A stretch of 44,253 bases of DNA from Rotaria sp. Taxonomy: Eukaryota. The stretch is taken from the NCBI GenBank assembly GCA_905250055.1, contig CAJNOF010000004.1:4268656-4312908 (forward strand), given 5' to 3'. Made by a program: the position numbers and the translations under genes. Shown here one piece after another: positions 7,195 through 28,503 of this stretch (position 1 is its first letter; each line of letters starts with the position of its first letter). The notes beneath the pieces are model-generated. The model saw nothing but the letters and a program-made list of their open reading frames with translations, made no database searches and was not told the DNA's origin.

Positions 7195-7835
7195 GATTTG
7201 TTTTTAAAACAATTATTAATAATCAAAGAACATGTTTCTTTACTCTAAAAAAAATTAAGAGATGATGATATAATAGTTTCGTTTGCGGTTATCGCTGACT
7301 GGATGAGTAGAACAAGGCACCACATTATCCATGTCGCTAAGTAAATGTCCTCAATATTAAATGATTAAATTCTTTCATTAATCAATTAAATTATTTAGTT
7401 TTTGAATAGATGCATCTTTTATTTCTTTTATTTTTTATATAAAAAATTATTTTCAATAAACTCAGTTGACATAGATGGCGTCATTGTTTTAATCTATTTT
7501 TTTGACGATGCAAACGATTTTTTTTCTACTTTCGTTTGCTCTCGACATGACACATACTGGCTTGTGCAATAGCATGAAAGAAAAAAAAATATATATTGCA
7601 CATACTCTGGTTGTTCTTACACCATCAACTGTCAATTCGGATTTTTTTTATAGTTGTGAATAACCCGAGTCTGACATTTGTTTGCCTTTCTTTCTGCTCG
7701 CTTGTGCAACGTTGTTTCTTTCTCAACTCGATGTTTTTTTAGTTATTTGCATTTAAATACTCGAGTTATTTTATTTTTTACTTTCATTTGTTTTTTTACA
7801 CTTCTAGTAGTATCTTCAATAGTGAGCACAAGAAA

Positions 7836-8621
7836 ATGGCTGATCCCAAAAAGCCATCAACGGCATCCTCATTATTGTCTACGACAAGTTCATTTTTGTC
7901 AACAAAAAATACTACTCTTAACAGTAGTTCATTACTTCAAGGATCGAGTCTTTTATCTTCATCAACATCTAATAAAACAAGTTCACTTTTATCAGAAACG
8001 AGTACAAGCAAACCATCGGGTCTTCTTTCATCATCAAATGTATTAGGTTCTCTGCAAAAGCCATCATCGTCTTCAACTCTATTGAATACTTCATCTAAAC
8101 TATCATTTGTTTCAACACAATTAAATACTTCATCTAAACCATTATCTTCATCAAGTCTATTAAGTACTCCTCCTAAGTCATCTTCATCAACTCTATTAAA
8201 TACTGCTCCTACATCATCATTTCTTTCCACTACAAAAATATCTACTAACAATACATTGCTTTCATCATCAAATTTAAATAATTCATCTTTATTAACAAGT
8301 GAAACAAGTTTAAGTCGAAAACGTAAAGCTGAACCTTTAGAATCAACAGGCATAAATCAATCATTAACTCAAGAAACTTTAAAGAAATCTACATTAACAG
8401 CAACAAAAACAAGTACACCTGTTTCACTCTCGGATGAAAATGAACGCAAATATAATGCTGAAAATATCCAACCTGAATCGATTCGTCTTAATGTTGATTT
8501 ACATTGTCATATTCCAGCACCGAAACGTCCTCGTATTGATCCATTTTCTTCAATCTATGCTAAACTTGAAAGTCAAAATATAACAGATGATGATTTCAAT
8601 GTGGGCATTAAATCGATTAAG
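7836..8621 (+). CDS. TEP1: TEP1 exon 1: Ser/Leu-rich repeat region plus basic (NLS-like) segment.
   Basis: [67 protein letters not shown]...SRKRKAEP...[34 protein letters not shown]; donor AAG|gtttga. Confidence 0.75.
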
Positions 8622-11600
8622 GTTTGATATCGATTGTTCTTTTCTTGGAAAAAAAAATTTATATCCATTGTCTTTTTGTAGAAAAGTTTTCTTAATTCAT
8701 TGGCTGACTCATTATTAAGTCAACCAGATCTAAGAAAACAAACAGATTCAAAACGAAATGAACTTATTCGTCTTGCTAATTTAGTAATTGAACAAGATCC
8801 AGAATTTATTCTTAAAGTAAAATTCAGATAAAATTAGAAATATTTTATTTATCGAAAATTATTTGTTCTTTTGTCTTTTCATTTTAGGCTGCTCTTTATA
8901 CACGAAATCATTTGAATATTCGTATAACAGCGAATTTTCTAATTGCATATGCTGCATATACCGAACCCTGTCGAATATTTTTAAAAAAATATTTTCAAAT
9001 AACAGTTAATTTACCATCAGATTGGATTGAAATAGCTGAACTTTATCAAACATTTTTTGATAAACGTATTCATTTTGGTTCATTACCATCTGCATTACGT
9101 CGTGTTATGGTCAAAAAATTTCCTGATTTTGATAAATATCAGCTTGCAAAATATAATAAAGAGAAAGCTCGTTTGAAAAAAGCAAAAAAGGCTAATGCAC
9201 CAAAATCTACAAATACAACTAGTGCAACTCGAGGACGAGGAAATGTTGCTTGGAGAGGTAGTACTCGAGGTTCTCGATCAATGCGCGGACGGGGAACAAA
9301 TCGATCATCTTCAACCGATTCGAATATGAGTGTTGCATCAGTAGAACAAAAATTGGATAAAACAACAAAAAAAGCAATGGCTCAAATTACTGAAGAAGAC
9401 CGTGAAACACGACGAATGGCATTCACATTAAAACGATTAATTCGTCAATTACATATTAGTGAACCAGTTGAACATGTTTGGTGTCTATTAGGTAAACGAT
9501 ATCCGGAAACATCCGAACTTTTTTATCAATCACGTTTACCTGGTGTATTCGATCCAGAACGTGCAAATAAACGTATGAAATTACCAACACCAGAAACGTA
9601 AGTGACATTAGTTTTCTTTATTTTAGGTATTTTTATTTTACAAATTTTTCTTTTTTAACAGATGGGAAACACAAATCAGTCTTAAAGGAAACAAAGCTGA
9701 AGTTTGGCAACAATTAATCGATAATAAAAAACTTCCATTTATGGCTATGTTAAGAAACTTACGAAATATGATTAAAGTTGGTATGTATTGAGAAAACTGA
9801 TAGAATTTATTAAATATGATTATCGTAGTTTTCTATAAAATATAACAAAAATAAACAAATAATCTCTATTTTAATCTTTTATTTTTCAGGTATCTCGGAA
9901 AAACATCATCAATGGGTATTAAAAAAACTTCAAGATGATGGTGCAGTTATATACAGTCGTCAATTTCCATTTCGTTTCTTTTCGGCATATCAAATATTAG
10001 ATGAACTTGAAGATGAATTTAATAAATGGTGTGCAGCTAAAGAAACAGTAGCTGGAGTAACAGATATTAAAAGTCGACGATTAACACGAAAAGAAAAAGG
10101 AAAAAAAACTGCATTAAGTCCATTAGAAAAAGCTAAAAAACTTGGTTCAAAAGAAATAAAATATGATGTTGCACTTTTACAACGTTATAAAAAAGCACTT
10201 GATTGTTCAGTTAAAATAGCTACTCAACATAATTGTCAACCTATACCTGGTCGAACATTTGTTTTTTGTAATTTAAGTGAAGCTATGTCTCAACCATGTC
10301 AAGCAGCTAGAGGTTTAGGTAAACCCCGAACACGTGCTGAAATAGGTCTTTTAATGGGTTTAATGTGTAAATCAGCATGTGAATCAAGTCAATTAATTAT
10401 TTATAAAACAAAAGATAGTTTTACTGAAATTGAACAAACACCACAAGAAACAATACTTAATCAAATGACAAAAATTTTATCAAATAATCAACTTTCATCA
10501 TCATCAACATCAGATGTATGTATACCACCAACATTTCTTACAAATATGATTGCTGAAAAACAATGGTTTGATAATATGTAAGTAATGAAAAACAATAAAC
10601 GAAAATAAGTTTAATTCTACGTTTTTTTTTTAATTTTCTTTTTAGTATTATTGTTTCGGATGGATTAAAAGCTGATACAGCTGAATCAGATTTTGTTTAT
10701 CGATTTCTTTCACTTTATCGTTATTTAGTTAATCCTGAACTGATGTTTGTTAGTATTGATTTAAGTATAGCTCAATGTTCATTAACAAAATCCGATCGAT
10801 TTAATAATCGAAATGATATATTTTTAAGTGGTTTTTCTGATTCAATTTTACAATTTATTGCTGAACGTGGTAATGATGGACAATTATTACATGTTGAAAA
10901 TATTGATAATGCACATAATCTTAATAAACAAGTTGAATCAAACACAGAATCACAATCAATAACAGACTCATCAAATGAAGAACGATCAAAATTATCGACA
11001 AACTTACCAATGACGACATTAGTACCACGTTGGCGAACAGTACGTGTATTTATATCATCAACATTTAAAGATATGCATGCTGAACGTGATCTTCTAACAC
11101 GTTATGTTTTTCCCGAATTACGTCAACGAGCAAAAAGTCTTTTTGTTAATCTGTATCAAACAGATCTTCGATGGGGTATTGCAGAAAGTCAATCAAGACA
11201 ATCTGTTTTCTTATGTCTTAATGAAGTATATCGTAGTGATTATTTTATTGGTTTAATTGGTGAACGTTATGGTTTTATACCAAAATCATATGATGCACCA
11301 AAAGATGATCCACGATATACATGGTTAAATAAACTACCAATTGGTTATAGTATAACAGATTTAGAAATGCAAGCTGGTGCACTTCATTCATCCACAAAAC
11401 AAAATCGAGCATTTTTTTATCTTCGTGAACCAAAATTTCTTTCAAATATTCCTAAACCATGGTCTGATGATTTTAATTCTGAAGATCAAGATTCACAAAC
11501 AAAAATAAATAATTTAAAACAACGTATACGTTCAAGTGGTTTTGAAACATTTGATGGTTATCCATGTTCATGGCAAGGTGTATCAAATGATCGACCACTT

Positions 11601-14600
11601 GTTACTGATCTTGAACAATTTGCACAACGTGTTATTGATAATTTATGGACATCATTACAAGAAGAATATAAACCTGAATATGTTCTATTAGATGATAATG
11701 AAATAGAAGATAATCAACATCAACAATATCGTATGTCATTTATGGAACATTTTGTTAGTCGTAATAAAATTCTTCAAGATACAATTAAATCTCTTGGAAA
11801 ATCATCAGTTATTCTTATTACAGGACAACAAGGTTCAGGTAAAACAGCAGCTATTGCAGCTATTGCTAATAATATTTTATCAAAACTGGATTTAAATGCT
11901 AAAGTATATGAACATTATGTTGGTATTACACGTGCATCCTTAAATAGTGTTGCAATGCTTCGTCGTTTACTTTGTCAAATGATAAATGATCATTCCGAAG
12001 TAGCAAAACAATTTCCAATTGATAAAATTCGTTCAAGTTCATATACAGATTTATGTAAAATATTATCAGATTTCTTTCATACGATAAAAGGTCCATTAAA
12101 TATTGTTATTTGTATTGATGGTATTGAATTACTTGATAATGATACATTAGTTCATACATTAAATTTTATTCCAAAAGATTTTAATTTTGAAAAAATAACG
12201 TTTATTATTAGTGCTACAGAAGATAGTAATGTTGAACAAGCATGTAAAAATTTTTCTAATTTATTAACAATTAATATATCAAATCTTGAATTACTTGAAC
12301 GTAGTGAAATTGTTCGTAAACATCTTGATCGTTTTGGTAAAAAATTAGATGAACAAGCATTTTCATCACAAATGAAATTTATTACAAGTAAACGTGATTC
12401 ATTTAAACCATCATATTTAACATTAATATGTGAAGAATTATTATTAATGACAGATTATGAAAAGAAAATAACAGAAAAATTAAAAGCTATTCCACAAAGA
12501 CAATATTTATTTTTACTTGAAATATTTAAACGATTAGATACATTATTTGGTGAAACATATGTTGGTACAATATTTGGTTTAATTTATTCAGTACGACAAG
12601 ATTTAACTGAACAAGAATTACGTGATTTAATTAATATATCATTTAGTTCAACGAAAACATTACCTCCACCAGATAATTATACTTATCCAATAACAACAAC
12701 ACCTTTACAATTAGCTGATTTTATTTATAATTGTCATATTTTATTAAAACCTCAACTTTATGATGGACCACAAACAGTTTCAATAGCATCAAATGAAATT
12801 CGTCAAATAGTTAAAACACGATATATCCATTCAAATGAACAACAAATTAATTTATATAAACTTCTTGCTTTTTATTATTGGTGTGAAGCAACTGGACCAC
12901 AATGGACATCAATGAATATTAAAGCATATGAACATTTACCATATTATTTATATGCTGCTGAAGAATATAAATTATACTATTCATTATTAACTAATCTTAA
13001 ATTTATTGCTGGTAAATGTCGTGTTGGTCTTGTTCAATCATTAATTGATGATTATGAATTAATTAAATCTCTATCAAAAGTTTCAACTCATAAACAAACT
13101 TCTTCAATTATGAAAACAAAATCAATATCATCAACAAATACAAAAGAACAACCAATAAATGAAGTATTTCTTCAACAATATCGTTCATTTATACAACGAA
13201 ATAGTCATATTCTAGTTGTTAATCCATCATTAATTTATCAACAAGCATTAAATGAATTAGAAACAAGTCCTGTTTTTGATAATATACAACAAATACTTTC
13301 TAATCATCAAAAAAATTCATCCAATACAAATGATCAAATAACAGCATTTGTTCGTATTAATAAACCAGATAATATGGAACAAATGAAATATTCAATTGAA
13401 GGTTTTACAGAACCTATTCGATGTTTAGCAATATCACCATCAGGTAAGTTAAAATAAAATAAAAATACGAATATGAAAAAAATAATAATCAATTTTATTT
13501 TATTTTTTAGGTGTTCATCTAGCTGCTGGTTCTGCTGATTGTTTAATTCGTCTATATAATACATCAACATCTCGTTTATTAAAATTATTTGTTGGTCATG
13601 CTGCACCAATATCTGCTCTATGTTTTGTTGGTAATGATCGTTTAGTAAGTGGTAGTAATGATGGTGGTTTATCAGTTTGGGATGTATTAAATGGTCATCG
13701 TTTAAATATACTTTCACCAAAACATGATAAACGAGTTTCAGAATTATGTTCAAATCAACGTGGTACACAATTTGCATCTGTTTCATGGGATTCATTTGTA
13801 CGTATATGGGATATACAAAAAAGTCGACCAGATACAGAAATTCGTTTACATCCTAAACCAGTATCAAGTGTAGCATTTCATCCTGATGGTTTTATGTTAG
13901 TAACTGGTTGTTGGGATAGTATTGTTCGACAATGGAATGTAACAACTGGACAACGTAAATCAGTTATGCGTGGACATTTAAGTTCAATAAAAGCTGTTGC
14001 TTATTCAGCTGATGGTCGTTATATAGCATCATGTTCAATTGATGGTGAATGTCGTTTATGGAATTCATTAACTGGTAGTCAAGTTGGTCTTATATCAGCT
14101 CGTATAAGTTCGATTTATTTTTCACCAAATGGATCAACATTAGCATCAGCTGGTAATGATGGTCGTGTTCGAGTATTTTCATCAACAATAGGTCAATGTC
14201 AAATGATTATAACGAATGAAACATGGGGTTCAGTATCGAGTATTATGATTCATCCTGAAGGAGAATTTATTATAGCTGGATATCATTCAGGTTCTATAAG
14301 AGTATTTGATATACAAAATGGTACTACAGAACAAGAATTTCATTATCATAAAGGTCGTATTAATCGTCTTGGATTTTCATCTTCATCAGGAAATATTTTA
14401 ATATCAGCATCAAATGATCATAATTCTCGTATATATGATTTAAAAGATTTAGGTAAAAGAACTGATATTCGTATTCAAACAGCAATACTTAAAGGTCATA
14501 CAGCAGCTGTTCTATCATGTGCTATGAGTAAAACGAATATGATTGCAACAGGATCTGAAGATGCAACAATTTGTTTTTATGTACTATCAAAATATTTTGA

Positions 14601-16566
14601 ACGTTCATCACATGAACCAAATGAAATTTTAACTGAACATCGTACACCAATTACTGGTTTAACATTTAATAATGAAACACATCAATTAATATCAGCTAGT
14701 CGTGATGGTCAAGTACATATATGGAATATAAATCGATATTCATCAAAAGCTGTTGTAACACTATCAAATACACTTGCTCATTGTCATGCTGATTGGATAA
14801 ATGATATTGCTTTATCAAATACAAATAATGGTTTACTTGTAACTGCATCAAATGATAATACATTAAAAATTTGGAATACAATACCAAAAACAACAAAAAC
14901 TAATGATGATTCTATGGATGTTGTTTCAGCTAATGTTGAAGAAGCACGTGTAACACTTCGTGGTCATCAAGGCTCAGTTAATACAGTTTGTTTTTCATAT
15001 GGATGTGTTGTTTCTGGTTCATTGGATAATACAATTCGAGTATGGTCTCATAAAGGGACTGAAATAACATGTTTACGTGGTCATACAGAAAAAGTAACTT
15101 CATGTGACTTATGGATTAAATTAAAAGGTGTTCCTATAAAATCTGAGACCGATACAGATTCTAAATGGGCAAATATAGTTGAAGAGCAAGAAAAAGAACT
15201 TTCACGTACAACACATACAGTTGATACAATGCTTGTTGTTAGTGCATCAGAGGACGGTTCAATACGTGTATGGCGTCCAACTGATCCTGAACAACGTTGT
15301 GTGTATGATGCACATGCACAACCATTAAATGATATAGTACTAAATAATGAATCAATTGTAACATCATCACTTGATAAAACAGTTCGTTCATGGCAAATTC
15401 CAACAAATATGTTTATAAATAATGATTCAACAACATCAGCAATGACACCTCAAGTTGTTCCACCTGTTAGTCATTTAGATGAAGTTACATCGATTAGTGT
15501 TTCTCGTGATAATTCACTTGTTTTTACTGTTTCACGTGATGCATATCTATTTATTTGGTCATTATTATCATTATCATCAAAAAATGATGATTATGAAATG
15601 GATACAGATATGATAAAAAATAAAATGTCGAAACAACCATTTCGTATCATACAATCAGTTAAAGCACATGATGAAACAATTCTTGGTATGGCTTTAGTCC
15701 GTTCCGATACTCAACATCATATTCTTGTAACTGGTTCTGTTGATAAAAAAATTAAAATTTGGACAATCATAAATAATCAAAATGACGAAAAATGTTCAAT
15801 TAAACGTTTAAGAACGGATACAACAGCAAATGGACCTGTTTCATTTGTTTCTGGTCGATATGATATGCCATATTTTGTTGTTGGTGAAAATCAATCATTT
15901 GATTCACTTACATTCTATCTTTATTCATCAACTTCACTTGACCGTTTAAAAACATATAAAACACAAACATGTCAATGGCCATTATCATCATTAATAACAT
16001 TAAATGAACATCAACATTATATTTTAACAATTGGTTCAACAAGTAATGAATTATGTTCATATGATTTATCATTAATTGATTCAACAGATAGTAAATTATA
16101 TGCATCATATGCATCAACAATCGAATATCGAACATCAATAACATCTGAATGGATAACATCAATAGAAAATTTTGATAATAATAAAGTTTTTTACTTAGGT
16201 ACAACAACAGGAAATATTTATTCAACAACAAATTTATTTAGTGATATAAAAACATGGAATAAAAATCAAATATCATCAAAACAACGATCAATTACAGCAT
16301 TATGTTCAATTAATAATGAACTTATATTTACAAGTGGTTTTGATAATGTCATACGAGTACAATATAGAAATGATCATGCAAAACATATGAATACAAATGA
16401 TGATGATGAACAAGATGAAAAAGTTGATGATATTCTTGGACAGTATCCTGTACCAGCACCAATTACACAAATGCGTACATGGAAACAAAACAATAATGGA
16501 ATATTTGGTGTTGTAGCCGGTGATACATTAGGAAACCTATATTTAGTACAATGGTATTCGTCTTAA
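7836..16566 (+). CDS. TEP1: TEP1 homologue (telomerase-associated protein 1 / vault TEP1), 7 exons, about 2,760 aa. Domain order: Ser/Leu-rich N-terminal repeats, TROVE, DUF4062, NACHT NTPase, long WD40 array. Model: join(7836..8621, 8682..8816, 8888..9597, 9662..9780, 9890..10577, 10646..13443, 13511..16566).
   Basis: All six introns are short (59-108 nt) and GT-AG with matched phases (gtttga, gtaaaa, gtaagt, gtatgt, gtaagt, gtaagt; acceptors ttttgtag, cattttag, tttaacag, ttttcag, ctttttag, ttttttag). The TROVE region is [59 protein letters not shown]...[21 protein letters not shown]4062 is [50 protein letters not shown]...[17 protein letters not shown] Walker A is [20 protein letters not shown] and Walker B is [14 protein letters not shown]. 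More than 15 WD40 units follow (GH..., WD/WN dipeptides, e.g. [45 protein letters not shown]). The TROVE-DUF4062-NACHT-WD40 order is the defining TEP1 architecture (established knowledge). Start ATG at 7836 (agaaaATGg) and stop TAA at 16564-16566. Confidence 0.85.
8682..8816 (+). CDS. TEP1: TEP1 exon 2 (start of TROVE).
   Basis: [45 protein letters not shown]; acceptor ttttgtag; donor gtaaaatt. Confidence 0.7.
8888..9597 (+). CDS. TEP1: TEP1 exon 3 (TROVE).
   Basis: Continuous ORF (8912..9601 in the ORF track) extended 5' to acceptor cattttag|gct; donor ac|gtaagtgac. Confidence 0.8.
9662..9780 (+). CDS. TEP1: TEP1 exon 4.
   Basis: (T)[39 protein letters not shown]; acceptor tttaacag; donor gtatgtat. 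Confidence 0.75.
9890..10577 (+). CDS. TEP1: TEP1 exon 5 (end of TROVE / vWA-like part).
   Basis: [52 protein letters not shown]...[10 protein letters not shown]; acceptor atttttcag; donor at|gtaagtaatg. Confidence 0.8.
10646..13443 (+). CDS. TEP1: TEP1 exon 6 (DUF4062 + NACHT NTPase).
   Basis: 904-aa ORF in track (10743..13457) extended to acceptor ctttttag|tat; Walker A GQQGSGKT; Walker [11 protein letters not shown]; donor cag|gtaagtt. Confidence 0.85.
13511..16566 (+). CDS. TEP1: TEP1 exon 7 (WD40 array, stop TAA at 16564-16566).
   Basis: 890-aa ORF in track (13894..16566) extended 5' to acceptor ttttttag|gtg, in the same frame. Dense WD40 signature: ...GHxxxIxxLxFxxxGxxLxSGSxDxxIxxWD. 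Confidence 0.85.
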
Positions 16567-18533
16567 GTGTGATCATATATATATATATTCTTATACAGTT
16601 TATTATCCGTCTTTTCTTTTTTTTTAGTATACTTAAAAAATTACTTACACTTTTTACTATTGTATCATTATAATATAATTTTATTTTCTAATAAAAATGA
16701 TACAAAAAAAACACATATGCATATATTCTTATGATCTAAATTGCGCGCTATCAAGGTATAGATATTCATAGCAATTAAGAATCTGCCACTGTCTCGATGA
16801 GAAATTCTTCGAAAACATCGTCCGTCAGTCTACGAAACTATCACAATCAGATTGAATCCATCAGATACATCCAGATTTTGACTGTTGCATCTGCAAACAC
16901 TCAAATGTACATTTAGTTTTTTTTTAATTTTGAGGTTTATTTTGTTCTTTGAAACAATTGAAACAATGGGTACTCAATCAGAACATTCATCTATAATATG
17001 TATTAGGTACCAAAAGAAAAGAAAAACAATTTAGTCGTGCAAAATAATATTATTCAAGAATTTGCAAGTACATTGAAATATGTTTTCAGTTCGTTAGGTC
17101 GAATTTTGGAAAAGAAGAAGACCATCCATAAATCCAGATGTTTTGATGATTAGAAGTTTTCATGATATGAAGTATTGTTTTTTTTTGTTCGCTTTATGAT
17201 TGAAAGCAACTGAATTAAGACACATAAAAAACTGATATGAAAGTTTGGATCTTTCAATAGTGCTAAGCAGGACAGGATCAGATCGTCTAAACATCGTGCT
17301 CTGCAACCTTCTTATCTGGTATAATGGTTATAACATTAGTTTCGAAATGATAAAATACTTACTTTTCATAAATAGATATAATAAAAAGTCTTCAAAAGAA
17401 AATTTTTCAATTTCGCCAAATAAATTAATGCTTATGTTTGAACAGATAATCAAGAATTCCAATCACAATTTGAAATGACTAATATCTTCACTAAAAGAAC
17501 TTTTTTTTTCGATTGAATGATTTATCTAGATTAAGAAAATAATTTCATTATTTATATTTAATCGAATCTAGCAATAATAATAATAAATGAAACGAAAATT
17601 TATCAATTCTATGTTTGACTAATTATCCTGTCTCTTTTTTCTCTCACATATAATAATAATAAACAAACACAAAAGATCTTAAAAGTCACTAAGAAAATTA
17701 GTCAGTATGAAATTCTTCAAGTTTACACATATGTGTATATGTATGTGTATAAAAATAAAACAAGAAAGTATTTAGAACATTTAAGAAAATAATACATAAA
17801 CATACATTCATTTATATATGAATAATGATCTTGACATCTTATATTCATGTTTCATCATATATCTGCATTTTATCATAAACATATGTAATCATTGAGAGAA
17901 AAATAGTTTATTTTAACAGTTGAAGACTTCAAGAGAATTCAACAAAATTTCAAAACTTCACCACTCAAGTTCTTCTTGTTGTTTGATCTTTCGTAATAAT
18001 ACATATATTGACAAAATTATTTTCTTCCAATCTAACTTACTACACTAGCAATGGATGAATTTTTACATAATGAATGTTTACAACAATAGATTCTACACAT
18101 TTATATATAAAATTATTCGACATGCTCTCAAAAAATTTACTCTTGAAAGCTTTTGTTGAATAAAAGTATTACGAGGAAAAAAAACTAGCATTATATAACT
18201 AATGCGATCTTAAAAGAGCGTAAATTTCTACTTCCAGCATATGATTTGAAAATAATTGACAATTTGAGATAATATTTTTGAAAGCTATATGATATTACTT
18301 CTAGATCATTTATGATACTCTAGAATGTTTCTCAGCAGTTTTTTCAAAAAAAATCGATTTACTTGTCGTTAACAAAGTGTTCGAATATGAATATATAAAC
18401 GAAGAAATACTCTTGCAGTTGAATACAAATTTTCGAATCAACTTAATGTTTTCGAATCTATCCTTAAACCTTGACGTTCATTTTCCGTAAATGCTTAGAG
18501 AACTATTTTTTAATTAATAAATTTTTATTTTAA

Positions 18534-19111
18534 CCCTTTGGTTACGGATCACACATATACTGTATGTGTATTGAACTTTTCCTTGGACTACTTCTGTTAC
18601 AGTTATGACTTTACTGCTTTAACTAAGTGCACAATAGCATGGCTTTTTATACTCTATATTGTACGACAATTCCTCTACATATCTTTGTTTTGGTCTGTTC
18701 TACGGAAGTCATACTTCATGGCAAAGTCAAAACCTGTCAGTTCTCAAGAGAGAGTGATACAATGCCGAGTGCTACTAAGGAAAAATACTTTATTCATAAA
18801 CTAGAAGACATTTGCTCATGAGGCATAATACAACACTCCTGAGACATCACCTGAAATGCTATCGCAGCAAATACGCTAATTGTAGTACCCTAACACTACC
18901 CTGATTGTACTCTTGTCCATTACAGGCTAATGGTGAAAGGAGAGCTATCTTGTAGAATTCCATCACTTAGTTATATTATAAAAGTGCTCTGGTACTATCA
19001 GAATTGTAACGTCATTATATAGTCTTACCATACATCGACATATCCTATGTGAAGCATTTTTCATAGAAATCGAAAATTTTCTTTTCCTAGAAAAATCCCG
19101 TAACCAAAGGG
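18534..19111. mobile_element. Non-autonomous piggyBac-like MITE, 578 bp. It has 14-15-bp perfect terminal inverted repeats (CCCTTTGGTTACGG ... CCGTAACCAAAGGG) and is flanked by TTAA target-site duplications at 18530-18533 and 19112-19115.
   Basis: TIRs and the TTAA duplication are read directly from the sequence. TTAA insertion with CCC...GGG termini is the piggyBac-superfamily hallmark (established knowledge). There is no intact transposase ORF inside, only short ORFs. Confidence 0.6.
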
Positions 19112-19830
19112 TTAACAGATCAAGCATTTAACGTCTATTTTTCTTCAAAATGTGGATCTCGAAGCCAGCACGTTCAATAGAGCTGGGACTTTGTGCACAG
19201 ATTGAGGATAGACAATTTATACGCTAGAAATTTTCCAGCTTCATGTCTTTTTAGCTAGCGGAAGGTCAATTAATTTCAGTATATGTAATGGTAGGCATTT
19301 GGCATCTATCGTATCTCCAAGTGCATTCAACTACCTTAAGATATAAAGACAATTCTCGTTTTTTTACTTTAAAGAAAACACTTGAGACTTGCAACTGTTG
19401 TTGCCCTTTTTTTGCTTTGCTTCTTTTTCGTACTCGTTTGATTGAGTATTCGATCGAAATCGTGAGGAAAAAATGCGCAATTCTACTTAAATAGCGAACT
19501 TTTGAAGGAAAGTAACAAGTAAGAAAAAGATTTTTTTCTATGTTTAAACCTTTTAAAAAAAAAGGATTACGAGAGTCGTTGGACCGAAGCATGAACTTTC
19601 GGATAAAAAAAAAGATTTAATTTTGTTTCGTATTGGAACAAAAAGCTTCTGGAGACGCATCACCGACCATATGATTCGAAATAAAAATGAAAAACATTTT
19701 CTGCCTTTACTAAAAAAAAGCTGTTAGTGTACTTCCTGTGGGATTAAAATGTGAAACATGATTCATCTACTTATTCAAAATAAAGGACACTATAATGTCT
19801 GTGAGAGTCTGGAATAAGGATCAAATTTGC

Positions 19831-20018
19831 TACCTTTATACTTCAAAATTCGTTTTAGATTGTGTTTCACAAAAATACTGTAATGTTGGTATGGTCTACG
19901 ATAGTCTCTGATTCATGTGTGTGTCACGGTCTGTGTGGGGCGAGGACGAGAGGTTCAGGTCTAGATTTTCTACTTTTTTACTTCAGTATTTCTTCTAGAT
20001 TGTGTTTCACAAAAAGCC
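19831..20018. repeat. Tandem duplication: a roughly 140-bp unit, with copies beginning about 19831 and 19970, sharing 'ctactttt(a/t)tacttca...tagattgtgtttcacaaaaa' and separated by a short GC-richer stretch.
   Basis: The 20-mer tagattgtgtttcacaaaaa occurs at 19856-19875 and 19996-20015, with conserved upstream context. Confidence 0.5.
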
Positions 20019-22782
20019 TGTCTTTTTCAGTAGTGGATGACGGAAATGATCAAAATTTTGGCGCGAAAAAAATCGATGTTGATGTAAAAATTATATTGTT
20101 GTTAAAGTATAGCATGATTGAGACTATAATCATCAGCGTTTATCTGAGTTTTCATTTTTTGGAGATATTGATTTTTTCTGTTGAAGAGGCTTCAGAAAAA
20201 CAATACATGAATGGGATACATACACATAAGAATAATGCGATGCACCTTCGTCTCTAAAAGAAGACTAACATCCTTTCCGTTTCATGTTACAATTGATAGA
20301 AAAATTAAGACACAAGAGTAATAAATTACTCCACTGGACTTTCCAAATTTTGAAGACGATTTCATAGGGCTCCATAAGACGAGAGTCTGTTGTTTCTCTT
20401 CTGGTCTAGTGTCTTTTGAGTCCGATAAAAATATCTTAGGTTCAAAAAAGTATTTTGTATGTTGTAAGTCTGGAACAGGAATACTACTGTGGGGGCGAAT
20501 TGAATTTATCGCCTTCGTATTTTTTTTTGTTTTTATCACTGTAGTCTTTTTATATATTAATTCATTACTATATATAGAGCAAGAAAATCCGAAACGTGCT
20601 GTATCTTTTGGTATATTTATATTGAATATCAAATGCAGTTTAAGGTGTAAAAAACGTACTAGAAAAAAAAGTAACATATTATTTTTACTACAATGTATAT
20701 TGCAAATTCAGTGACGGTATGGATGCAACTGTGAAGGTCAGGATGGATGTGAATGAATGTACGTAAGGGTATGGGCGTATTTGGATGCGAATGTGAGTGT
20801 GGAATGAATATAAAATAATCTCAACCCCAGTCACACATACACCGACACTCATAGGGTGTTGGTGTAAGTGATTGAAGAAGAATAGCTGCAACTACACCCA
20901 CAGATTAAAATAGTCGCTTTAAAATTGTGCAGAATCTTGGAATTCAAACCTGCTTAAGTCCAATATTCAAAATCATACAGTACCATCTGAAAACACGTTT
21001 TTCTCTTCATAATTGACAGTTGAATATGGTATAACACATAAGGAGTATGAAAATTAGTAACAATTATTTAATTTCTTTCAATATATATGTGAATTGTTAT
21101 TGCCGTTACTGTTTTCTCTAACTAAAATGACAATAAGAAAAGCTCTTCAAGATTAAGGGTGATGTCAAGGATTGGTAGCATATGTAACGCATCATATTCT
21201 AATATATTGGAGCATATTCTCTGTATTATTTTGCAATTTTATCTGCTTCATATCAACAAGTATATCAAGCACTTCTTCGGGTAAATATTTCTAGTTTTTT
21301 ATACTAAAAGTACAACATTATATTAAAACACAAAGCAGCATATGAAAATACAAAGTATGCTGTTTGGTACTTAACGAGAGTTGCCTATTTGTATTTTTGT
21401 AAAATTAATTAAACTCTAACGTAAATTACAAATAATTTAATTTGAAAATAATTTTAGTATGTTTTTATTATTAGTTTACTTTATTTTAATTACGAATTCT
21501 GATAATTTAAACTAAAAATAGATTTAAATTACATAATTTTAGTTTATGTTAAAGTTCATATAGCGAAAATTAAAATTAAAATAGACTTCAACTATAATGC
21601 GAAAAAAAATTACTTTTTTTGAAATATAGGTTATTTTTAATTTATTTGTGTACTTAATTTCTTTTCAATATAAAATAGCTTCTCTGAAATACCAGCAATT
21701 AGAGGATCTTTTTTGAAAAAATAAAACTAATTCTAAATTAGTCTCGTTCAACTTTATCTCTCTAATTTTGTATACTATGATAGAAATTTTTTATTTATAC
21801 AAAACTTGGTAAAATTCGAAGTAAAATTGTGTTAAATAGCATCTCAGAATGTTTATTGATATGTAGAAGTTAATCACTTGATCGTACAATTCAATCGGCT
21901 AAATGACAGGTAAGAAACATATTATATGCATGTTTGAATCTAACCTTCATCCTTACATATTTCAATTTAGATTAGTCCGGACCAGACCAGTGTATAAGAC
22001 TACAACTCCTCGTATGCAGCGTCATGGACTCCCACACTTTTTTTTATTTACAAATGTTTTTGGACGGACCTCAAGGATTGTACAACATGCCTAGTCCTTT
22101 TCTCACAAAAGACTAGACGAGACGTGCCGTTATGACAAGAACAGCGACTAGTCTTTTTACCCGTCCTTTGTTCATCTGGGTAAGATGTAAAATATTTAGT
22201 CGTAGTCAATAAAGGAACATCACCTTTCATGATCTCAATGAAGTTTGGACTATTTCCTTTTTAGATAATAGCTTTAACTTTTCACTACATAACTGTATAT
22301 TTCAACCAATTATCTATACATGTATTTGTATCAACAGCATAAATTTACAGAGAAAGATCAAAACTTTTGGATAACCCTTTATTAAGACTGTTACTCATAG
22401 TTATCACTATAATTAATAGCCTAATATCAAATATGTATCTGCACTTTCTCTCTTGCTTTAGATTCCCATTTGTTATATATACATGATCTCAGAGTCGTCT
22501 CATCCATCTAAATTGTATGATAAAAATACATGTCCTTTATAATCTAAGCATATACAAAGGTTGTTATCAGAAAAAATAAACAAATAGCTTAATTCTACTT
22601 GTAACATTTTAAAAATGTTTAGCTCAAATCGATAACTATAAAATGATTTGTATCTTCATCACACTGATAATTTTTAAATATTCTACTATTTTGTCGAGTT
22701 TTTCTTATCAAACACTAATTTCCTTTTTTTTTGCGCAGTAAAGAAAATTTTCTGTTATTTCGATTTAATGTTGTATTTTTAA

Positions 22783-25425: not shown

Positions 25426-27314
25426 TTAATTTTGCTGTGAATAAGCGATTGTATCGTTTAGTAGATGGCTGAATATCACATCAAATGAATTTTCTCGTTG
25501 TAATTTTCTATTGAAATTCATATGATATAAATATGGCGAACTAATGGGTCTATCAGATGTTCTTATATCGTTCAATTCTTCATTTTCATAATTCCAAAAT
25601 TGAGGAGCATCAATCAATTGTATATGATTAAATTTTTCATAATCGAATCCACTTAATGTAGAATTACATGGTGAAAATTGATAACCCCATAAAAGTTCAT
25701 TAGGTAAATAAGATGTACGAAAATGACATCAAAAACCAGTATAATCAAAAGAACCTTCAATAATAGCAATGATTTCAAAATGTTATTTTTCTAATGTTGA
25801 TTGTTGTATACCATAAAGTGGACTACGTGAATTAATAATATGTTCAACAATAGTTGGTTGAGGAAAAAATAATTGATCATTACGTAAGTGTGGTAATTCC
25901 ATATCATAGATTTGATGAGGAATTATTTCACCTTCAAGTGTTCGTCGCTGACGAATCATTAGTAAACGAACACTAGCAAATATCAATTAAGAAGTTGATA
26001 AGTTAACTATAAAAAAAAAGAAAAAGAAATGAATCTTTCTTTTATAATGGTTTATTTGACATACCTATTCGAAATGTTAATGGTAATTGATTATTTCGTG
26101 GGGCAATGAGCGGATAATTACTGAATATAATAAATTGGGATTTTTCTAAAAATATACAAAAAATATTCATTTATTATCATCAATCAAACAAACTAACAAA
26201 AATAATATTCTTTCATTATGGAATATTTCTAGAAGACCTTGATGGTTTACAATCTATTCTGAAATTATTCATAGAATTAGTTCAGCTTTGAATTTAATTA
26301 ATGAAATTTACTTTTATTTTGTTAAGTATCAGAAAAAAGAATAACCTTCGCCTGTAGGTCGTGATAATTTAGTAAAAACAATTTGTGTGACAATAACTTG
26401 TAATAAATATTCAAGTAATGATTGAAGAGTTCATACAAGTATACCACCCATACATTCTGTTGTTATATATCTTGAACCATAACCAATTGTATGTTGTGTT
26501 TCAATAGAAAAAAGTAATGCACTTAAAAAATCATGTACAGGGTTGCCAAAAATGTTTTGCCCGGGGGATACAGCTCCAATGACAAATGATATCAATATTG
26601 AATTTGATACAAAATGGAAGCCCGTCAAGAATGGGGTTTATCCATACGAATGAATAAGGGCTATAAAGACTTTTCTCTATCAAACTTTGATAATTTCTAA
26701 AACTCCATGAACTATAGTCATAGCAAAACTATCCTTTATCATAGAGAACTCAAACTATTCCTGATATAAAATTACTAAACATAGAAAGGTTATCCTTACT
26801 TTTTATGGCTTAATGAATGATACAAAATAAAGGTAACTTTGCTAGATTCAGTATTTTTATATCAGAAGTAGTCTGAGTTCTTTATGATAAAGGATAGTTT
26901 TGCTATGACTATGGTTCATGGAGTTTTGGAAATTTTCAAAGTTTGATAGAGGAAAGTCTTTATAGCCCTTATTCATTCGTATGAATAAACCCCATTCTTG
27001 ACGGGCTTCCATTTGGTATCAAATTCAATATTGATATCATTTGCCATTGGAGCTGTACCCACGGAGCAAAACATTTTTGGCAACCCTGTACATCTTGAAC
27101 ACATTTTTTTTGTTCTATTTTCAAATATTGTCGTGTATAATTTGTTTGATTATCTAATAAAACTTGTTCATCATCGTTTAAAACAATATATCCATGTTCA
27201 ATTGAAATAAGAACATAAAGTGAGGAAAAGAAAAACCAACCTAATATAAAACCAAACAAAACAAATATTAATACAAGCCACCAGTAGAGGGCTGTAGATT
27301 GCTCTATTTTGACA
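25426..27314 (-). pseudogene. Inward-rectifier K+ channel (Kir/KCNJ family) gene copy that appears disabled. Recognisable segments: M1 helix (27092..27313), pore helix/selectivity filter + M2 (26346..26530), cytoplasmic C-terminal domain exons (about 26061..26146, and 25426..25972).
   Basis: The minus-strand translation is collinear with Kir2/Kir6 sequences. Segments: (i) LYWWLVLIFVLFGFILGWFFFSSLYVLISIEHGYIV...KKCVQ (M1); (ii) [62 protein letters not shown] (pore TIGYG + M2); (iii) EKSQFIIFSNYPLIAPRNNQLPLTFRIG; (iv) IVRLLMIRQRRTLEGEIIPHQIYDMELPHLRNDQLFFPQPTIVEHIINSRSPLYGIQQSTLEK*HFEIIAIIEGSFDYTGF*CHFRTSYLPNELLWGYQFSPCNSTLSGFDYEKFNHIQLIDAPQFWNYENEELND... There are three in-frame stops at aligned, normally coding positions: TGA 26431-26433, TAA 25783-25785 and TGA 25729-25731. 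A 560-bp hairpin interrupts the M1-pore exon. The conserved N-terminal cytoplasmic segment (…RFV.K.G.CNV.F…IFTT.VD.KWR) could not be found; the sequence upstream of M1 is the ctgccctgccctg repeat instead. Confidence 0.65.
26531..27090. repeat. 560-bp long hairpin / foldback element. The two roughly 225-bp arms (26531..26760 and 26870..27090, about 93-95% identical as reverse complements) flank a partly palindromic roughly 110-bp centre.
   Basis: The left arm 'atgtacagggttgccaaaaatgttttgcccgggggatacagctccaatgacaaatg...' is the reverse complement of the right arm '...catttgccattggagctgtacccacggagcaaaacatttttggcaaccctgtacat'. The boundaries fall exactly inside Kir coding sequence: right flank ...KKCVQ / left flank [13 protein letters not shown].... 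Confidence 0.8.
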
Positions 27315-27375
27315 ACCTGACTCTGCCCTGCCCTGCAAGTTTTTGTTATGTACCCTGTTCTGCCCTGCCCTGTTT
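27280..27375. repeat. Copy A of a GC-rich 'caccagtagag / ctgccctgccctg / taccctgtt' repeat family.
   Basis: caccagtagagggc...ctgccctgccctgcaag...gtaccctgttctgccctgccctg. Related motifs recur at 28555-28735. Confidence 0.5.
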
Positions 27376-27562
27376 TCTTTAAAACTAAAGAAAATTCCAA
27401 ACTTTCGTATTAACTCATTATACAATTTCATTTCGATTTGTTACAACCATGAAGCAAAAAACAACAACATTATGTATCTCGAAAATTTCTAATCACGAAA
27501 ATATCATCAACAATATCTGAATTTAAAAACTATCTTTTTTTTCTAATATTCGATCTGATGAA

Positions 27563-28204: not shown

Positions 28205-28503
28205 ACAGCACATGTAAAAAAATGGATTAAGAATCAGATTAAAAATCGATTATAATGGCACTATTATAATCTGATTTTAATCAGATTTTTCAGCTTTAAA
28301 ATACAGATTTTATTTGATTTTGATTTTTTTTATATCTATTTTAATCGATTATTATAGTAATTGTAGGTAATTGGTTAAAATAGATTAAAAGAAAATCAAA
28401 ATCAAATAAAAACTGTCTTTTAAAGCTGAAAAATCTGATTGAAACCAGATTATAATAGTGCCATTATAATCGATTTTTAATCTGATTCATAATGCAAATT
28501 TTT
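28205..28503. mobile_element. Foldback / MITE-like element of about 300 bp. It is a near-perfect palindrome: arms of about 125 bp around a short AT-rich centre (28320-28380), with ends catgtaaaaaa...ttttttacatag.
   Basis: Left arm 'atggattaagaatcagattaaaaatcgattataatggcactattataatctgattttaatcagatttttcagctttaaaatacag...'. Right arm '...ctgtcttttaaagctgaaaaatctgattgaaaccagattataatagtgccattataatcgatttttaatctgattcataatgc' is its reverse complement. Confidence 0.75.

Follow-up and report, generated by a model that had tools for sequence, protein, structure and literature searches.

A probable non-autonomous piggyBac-superfamily transposon (MITE) downstream of TEP1 in a bdelloid rotifer

The DNA analysed here is a stretch of 44,253 nucleotides, referred to throughout as the window. 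It is eukaryotic, AT-rich and compact, and it carries a homologue of TEP1 (telomerase-associated protein 1) whose very long exons encode a TROVE domain, a DUF4062 and NACHT-like ATPase region, and WD40 propellers (Table 1). Beyond TEP1, the window holds an IRK fragment, TMEM127 and LIS1-like WD40 exons, while searches for tRNAs and Rfam families detected none in the window. The best named relative of the NACHT exon is the Didymodactylos carnosus protein CAF0783335.1, with 64% identity over all 904 residues, and the next named matches (crinoid and sea urchin) show no more than 34-37% identity. As the TEP1 exon is closest to D. carnosus and the other named matches are far lower, the host of the window is, judged by protein similarity, a bdelloid rotifer. 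The TEP1 of the window also shows 66-85% identity to metagenome proteins. Upstream of the TROVE exon, we see a 39-nt repeat that occurs five times at 7851-8210 (67-77% identical), with four of the copies lying near-tandem at 8058-8210. The repeats sit inside a Ser/Thr/Leu-rich ORF of 279 aa (7788-8627), and the array is a low-complexity coding repeat without a Pfam match.

The element that is the subject of this report lies in the spacer downstream of TEP1. In the window, 6.2 kb separate the TEP1 stop from the next conserved gene (16566 to about 22728), whereas in four orthologous metagenome contigs, L001-L004, the same spacer ranges from about 80 bp to 1.9 kb. The element is absent from the spacers of these four contigs, which cannot be aligned with the window spacer. 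The element sits inside lineage-specific extra DNA downstream of TEP1, and it has no evident effect on the neighbouring genes. Pfam searches across the rest of the spacer (16566-22728) gave no match. Also in the spacer, at about 19-21 kb, is a stretch richer in GC (34%), where ORFs of 131 aa occur on either strand and a 57-nt sequence is directly repeated (19825-19881 and 19965-20021). Base composition differs widely among the orthologous TEP1 loci themselves, at 29% GC for L001, 33% for L002, 37% for L003 and 47% for L004, although their TEP1 proteins are 75-85% identical to that of the window.

Table 1 Features of the TEP1 locus and of the downstream element, with positions in the window.
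Feature	Position	Strand	Remarks
TEP1 (telomerase-associated protein 1) homologue	8912-16566		Very long exons
TROVE	8912-9601		TEP1 exon
DUF4062 and NACHT-like ATPase	10743-13457		TEP1 exon
WD40 propellers	13894-16566		TEP1 exon
Left TTAA target-site duplication (TSD)	18530-18533	.	Direct reading; within the perfect 18-nt inverted repeat I4; TTAA also borders the L005 element (216-219)
Left terminal inverted repeat (TIR), CCCTTTGGTTACGG	18534-18547	+	Same sequence forms the L005 terminus
Internal non-coding body, 550 bp	18548-19097	.	ORF, Pfam and Rfam searches; comparison with L005
Right terminal inverted repeat, CCGTAACCAAAGGG (as on the + strand)	19098-19111	-	
Right TTAA target-site duplication	19112-19115	.	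Direct reading; L005 counterpart at 798-801
Window sequence bordering the TTAAs			...AATTTTTATT on the left side; CAGATCAAGC... on the right side

Without its TTAAs, the element spans 18534-19111 and is 578 bp long. The window reads TTAACCCTTTGGTTACGG at 18530-18547 and CCGTAACCAAAGGGTTAA at 19098-19115, which is the exact reverse complement, giving a perfect 18-nt inverted repeat that includes the TTAA and whose arms are separated by 550 nt. The TIR proper is perfect over 14 nt; at positions 15 and 16, the left arm has AT and the right arm GA. The ends of the element are CCCTTTGG...CCAAAGGG, which is of the CCC...GGG type. The initial annotation had described a 578-bp element with an exact TTAA on both sides and perfect TIRs with CCC/GGG ends, and these readings are confirmed, the perfect stretch being 14 nt long in the window. 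Beyond the TIR, no sub-terminal inverted repeats were seen above the level of shuffled controls. The GC content of the element is 36%, that of the left flank 25% and that of the whole window 29%.

The 14-mer TIR has just two sites in the window, even when two mismatches are allowed (0.04 expected), and a search for TTAA-C[C/A/T][C/A/T]...TIR pairs found this element alone. That there is a single copy in the window would be in keeping with a sequence that is not mobile at all, whether an inverted repeat arisen by chance or a stretch of host DNA conserved for a regulatory or structural role. However, when the window was simulated 100 times with a first-order Markov model, none of the simulations gave a perfect inverted repeat of 18 nt or longer within 2 kb. 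As a negative control, 596 Gb of prokaryotic genomes gave only seven matches to the 18-mer, all of them unpaired chance matches without homology to the element.

A second family member also bears on this question. JGI metagenome contigs were scanned for the two 14-nt termini placed 535-565 nt apart, with the TTAA left unspecified, so that only elements 564-593 bp long were admitted. The scan yielded a single contig, L005 (Ga0116227_10206832), which is 1523 bp long and carries an element at 220-797. Aligned in reverse orientation, this element and that of the window share about 70% identity across all 578 bp (blastn E 4e-65), and the global alignment of the two scores 218, compared to -45 to -12 for shuffled controls. 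The L005 TIR is perfect over 16 nt (CCCTTTGGTTACGGGG), but exact termini were demanded by the scan, so their perfection is not counted as evidence. Likewise, the L005 element is 578 bp long as well, but this equal length arises from several compensating indels and falls within the 564-593 bp limit of the scan, so we give it no weight.

The flanks of the L005 element are unrelated to those of the window element, and there is a TTAA on both sides. Homology between the two copies stops at the termini on the right, and on the left side there is only a T-rich resemblance, in what is demonstrably host DNA. The L005 element has a GC content of 41%, compared to 36% in its left flank and 23% in its right flank. 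As the L005 TTAAs were not imposed by the search, they amount to an independent test of the piggyBac-like idea, which it passed; the chance of finding both is roughly 2e-4 (a rough estimate, taking about 0.34 A or T per position). Confinement of the TIR to this one locus, or non-TTAA flanks elsewhere, had been named in the initial annotation as grounds for abandoning its reading, and we find the opposite in each case, with a homologous element that has other genomic surroundings and is again bounded by TTAA and TTAA. In total, two copies are known, about 70% identical and in two different rotifer genomes, with one of them in the 44-kb window; since the scan needed exact termini, this count is a lower bound.

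The host of L005 can be judged from the DNA next to the element. The adjoining ORF has 79-83% identity to proteins of Rotaria sp. Silwood2, R. sordida and R. sp. Silwood1, and the flanking exon has 88% nucleotide identity to the R. sordida contig CAJNOT010000012.1. These identities to Rotaria indicate that the L005 host, too, is a bdelloid rotifer. The element is located in an intron of an exportin-like gene. The L005 exon ends in ...CAATTG/GTAAAAAT, and the donors in R. sordida and in a further contig, L014, are GTAAG; from these matching splice donors we place the TTAA used in L005 about 20 nt into the intron. The introns of the relatives (R. sordida and L014), with lengths of 48 nt and about 320 nt, cannot be aligned with L005, while the flanking exon aligns at 83-88%. 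The presence of a homologue with the same boundaries in an unrelated exportin-like intron of another rotifer argues strongly against an immobile sequence. With a second copy in different flanks, the chance or host-sequence reading is effectively refuted, and we regard it as barely conceivable.

Some further features of the L005 contig can be described. Outside the element (1-219 and 802-1523), it carries the exportin-like exon with its donor and, directly after these, an antisense NARF/iron-hydrogenase-like gene fragment of 35 aa that is 71% identical to Adineta steineri. The exportin-like/NARF arrangement differs from that of R. sordida, and the locus could be rearranged or paralogous, or an assembly chimera.

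Two copies of the element also allow its body to be assessed for coding or RNA content. The longest ORF inside the window element is 88 aa and begins with a TTG start. Six-frame pieces of the window and L005 elements matched no Pfam family at E<=10, and therefore there is no recognisable transposase remnant in either copy. The two copies differ by 167 substitutions, which are distributed evenly among the codon phases (52/54/61) and have a ts:tv of 116:51, and this pattern is one of drift, not of coding. A protein-coding body was rejected due to the lack of codon periodicity and of a Pfam match, and the absence of coding capacity noted in the initial annotation stands. A structured RNA was rejected as well, as there is no Rfam match inside the element and the sole match at E<=1 is outside it and non-significant. 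At 578 bp, the element has the size and structure of a MITE (under about 800 bp, with TIRs and a TSD and no coding capacity).

A published survey of 157 piggyBac-like elements describes TTAA sites, TIRs of 12-19 bp and precise excision, with ends that are usually CCC/GGG and more generally C[C/A/T][C/A/T] (PMC5381638). The TTAA duplication, a TIR length in this range and the CCC...GGG ends are all found in both the window and the L005 copies. Because the element conforms to the structural definition of the superfamily in its TTAA TSD, its TIR of 14-16 nt and its CCC...GGG ends, it is assigned to piggyBac, and the piggyBac-type insertion signature proposed at the outset is supported. We consider it very likely that window 18534-19111 is a non-autonomous piggyBac-superfamily DNA transposon (MITE) downstream of a bdelloid TEP1.

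The TTAA can be read in another way, as a TA is nested within it. The element could be a Tc1/mariner-type MITE that duplicated just the central TA; its TIR would then be 15 nt long (ACCCTTTGGTTACGG), and the T and A on the outside would be there by coincidence. Both copies do parse as T/TA/ACCC...GGGT/TA/A, and a TA-flanked foldback at 26533-27093 in the window indicates that TA-targeting transposons are present in the genome. If the outer T and A were indeed coincidental, it would be surprising that the four outer positions in both copies all fit TTAA, for which we estimate a chance of about 1.5% (with roughly 35% T and 35% A). Tc1/mariner elements are not known for ends of the CCC...GGG type or for a start in CCCTTTG. 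Both are typical of piggyBac (PMC5381638; PMC2997546), and we judge a Tc1/mariner origin to be quite improbable.

The piggyBac assignment can also be weighed against known systems, among which the mouse lemur piggyBac MITE npiggy1_Mm offers a close structural likeness. This element has TTAA followed by CCCTTTGCACTCGG, with the terminus TTAACCCTTTGCACTCGG, and was classed as piggyBac from its TTAA duplications (PMC2997546). Like the window element, npiggy1_Mm is short and non-coding, with a TTAA TSD and a TIR of 13-14 nt, and comparison with the window terminus (TTAACCCTTTGGTTACGG) shows identity at 10 of the 14 TIR positions, including the first seven. The two differ in that npiggy1_Mm is a 240-bp element of a primate host and the window element a 578-bp element of a rotifer host, and we see no sign of internal homology. 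They also differ in abundance, as npiggy1_Mm has about 943 copies and an autonomous piggyBac1_Mm, whereas we have at least two copies here and a partner was not found.

This classification draws on the TSD and the termini. Another or an undescribed cut-and-paste superfamily with 4-bp AT-rich duplications, such as the Sola group, could leave similar traces, and its transposase would be unrelated to that of piggyBac. Sola elements reportedly make 4-bp TSDs, in an account attributed to Bao et al. from 2009. However, the termini fit the piggyBac pattern, down to the positions shared with npiggy1_Mm, and a TTAA TSD is a recognition feature for piggyBac in published surveys (PMC5381638, PMC2997546). 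A source in another superfamily therefore seems improbable to us, and we retain piggyBac as the classification.

A further short element for comparison is the lepidopteran TFP3/tagalong, which has an insect host and other termini; its mobility was shown experimentally, whereas we infer that of the window element. TFP3/tagalong is about 780 bp long and is not known to carry a transposase gene of its own. According to published accounts, this short insertion element is specific to TTAA and excises precisely (PMC5381638, PMC8634313). The Trichoplusia ni piggyBac, IFP2, is a 2,475-bp element with a 594-aa transposase and 19-bp sub-terminal inverted repeats (PMC5381638). IFP2 and the window element have in common the TTAA duplication and a short CCC...GGG TIR (13 bp in IFP2, 14 bp here), and presumably also a cut-and-paste mechanism. 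Unlike IFP2, the window element is only 578 bp long, non-coding and without sub-terminal repeats. Closest in host are the piggyBac-like DNA transposons noted in the bdelloid Adineta vaga, which belong to the same host class and superfamily as the window element (PMC2861651 Table 1). The MITE family described here is new, its type is known, and the element is an ordinary mobile one in a host group that already has piggyBac-like elements; bdelloid piggyBac-like transposons are a plausible source type for a transposase acting in trans.

Searches for such a partner, and for further copies, were made in several collections. A Pfam scan of all window ORFs of at least 70 aa detected no piggyBac transposase (DDE_Tnp_1_7, PF13843). 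Six-frame ORF pieces of the window element, compared with 5.8 billion proteins, revealed no other copies called as spurious genes, and the ORFs of the L005 element gave no match in the protein search. The 18-mer had 0 matches in viral contigs and the two-TIR pattern had 0 matches in prokaryotic genomes, while a search for the terminal strings in the searchable literature returned unrelated primer sequences only.

How the element may have moved can be outlined. A DDD transposase of piggyBac type, encoded elsewhere by an autonomous element with matching ends, would recognise the CCCTTTGGTTACGG termini and cut the element out at the flanking TTAAs via hairpin intermediates. The element would then reintegrate at another TTAA, which would be duplicated in the process. 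The MITE itself would supply only the cis sites, would encode nothing, and would be moved solely in trans. The transposase and the excision chemistry in this outline come from established piggyBac knowledge, not from the data presented here. The element would point to a past or present piggyBac-like transposase source in this genome, and current activity of the MITE family is something that we can only infer.

The two copies are about 30% diverged and belong to different bdelloid lineages, with ends and TTAAs intact in both, which would fit a family that has long been mobilisable or that has moved horizontally between bdelloid species. We put this forward tentatively, as a possibility that we do not favour. 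If true, it would mean that there is a living piggyBac transposase source in bdelloids, and that the insertion beside TEP1 is recent. Bdelloids are ancient asexual, transposon-poor animals. They are a test case for the persistence of transposons without sex, for which it has some value to date the presence or absence of such insertions across species or homologous copies. In practical terms, TTAA with CCCTTTGGTTACGG and the 578-bp probe offer a means of annotating the MITE family in bdelloid assemblies and of seeking its autonomous partner.

Finally, the window contains two other palindromic elements. One lies at 28216-28503, where 136-nt arms, 90% complementary, enclose a loop of 16 nt. Its sequence is very AT-rich and resembles neither the foldback at 26533-27093 nor any retrieved locus. 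The foldback at 26533-27093 is a 561-bp palindromic element whose 274-nt arms are 91% complementary around a loop of 13 nt. At its ends we read TA/CAGGGTTGCCAAAAATG...CATTTTTGGCAACCCTG/TA, with a terminal motif that we take to resemble Tc1, and the element is probably a foldback MITE of Tc1/mariner type. The 143-aa ORF at 26969-27400 that runs into this foldback is probably spurious.
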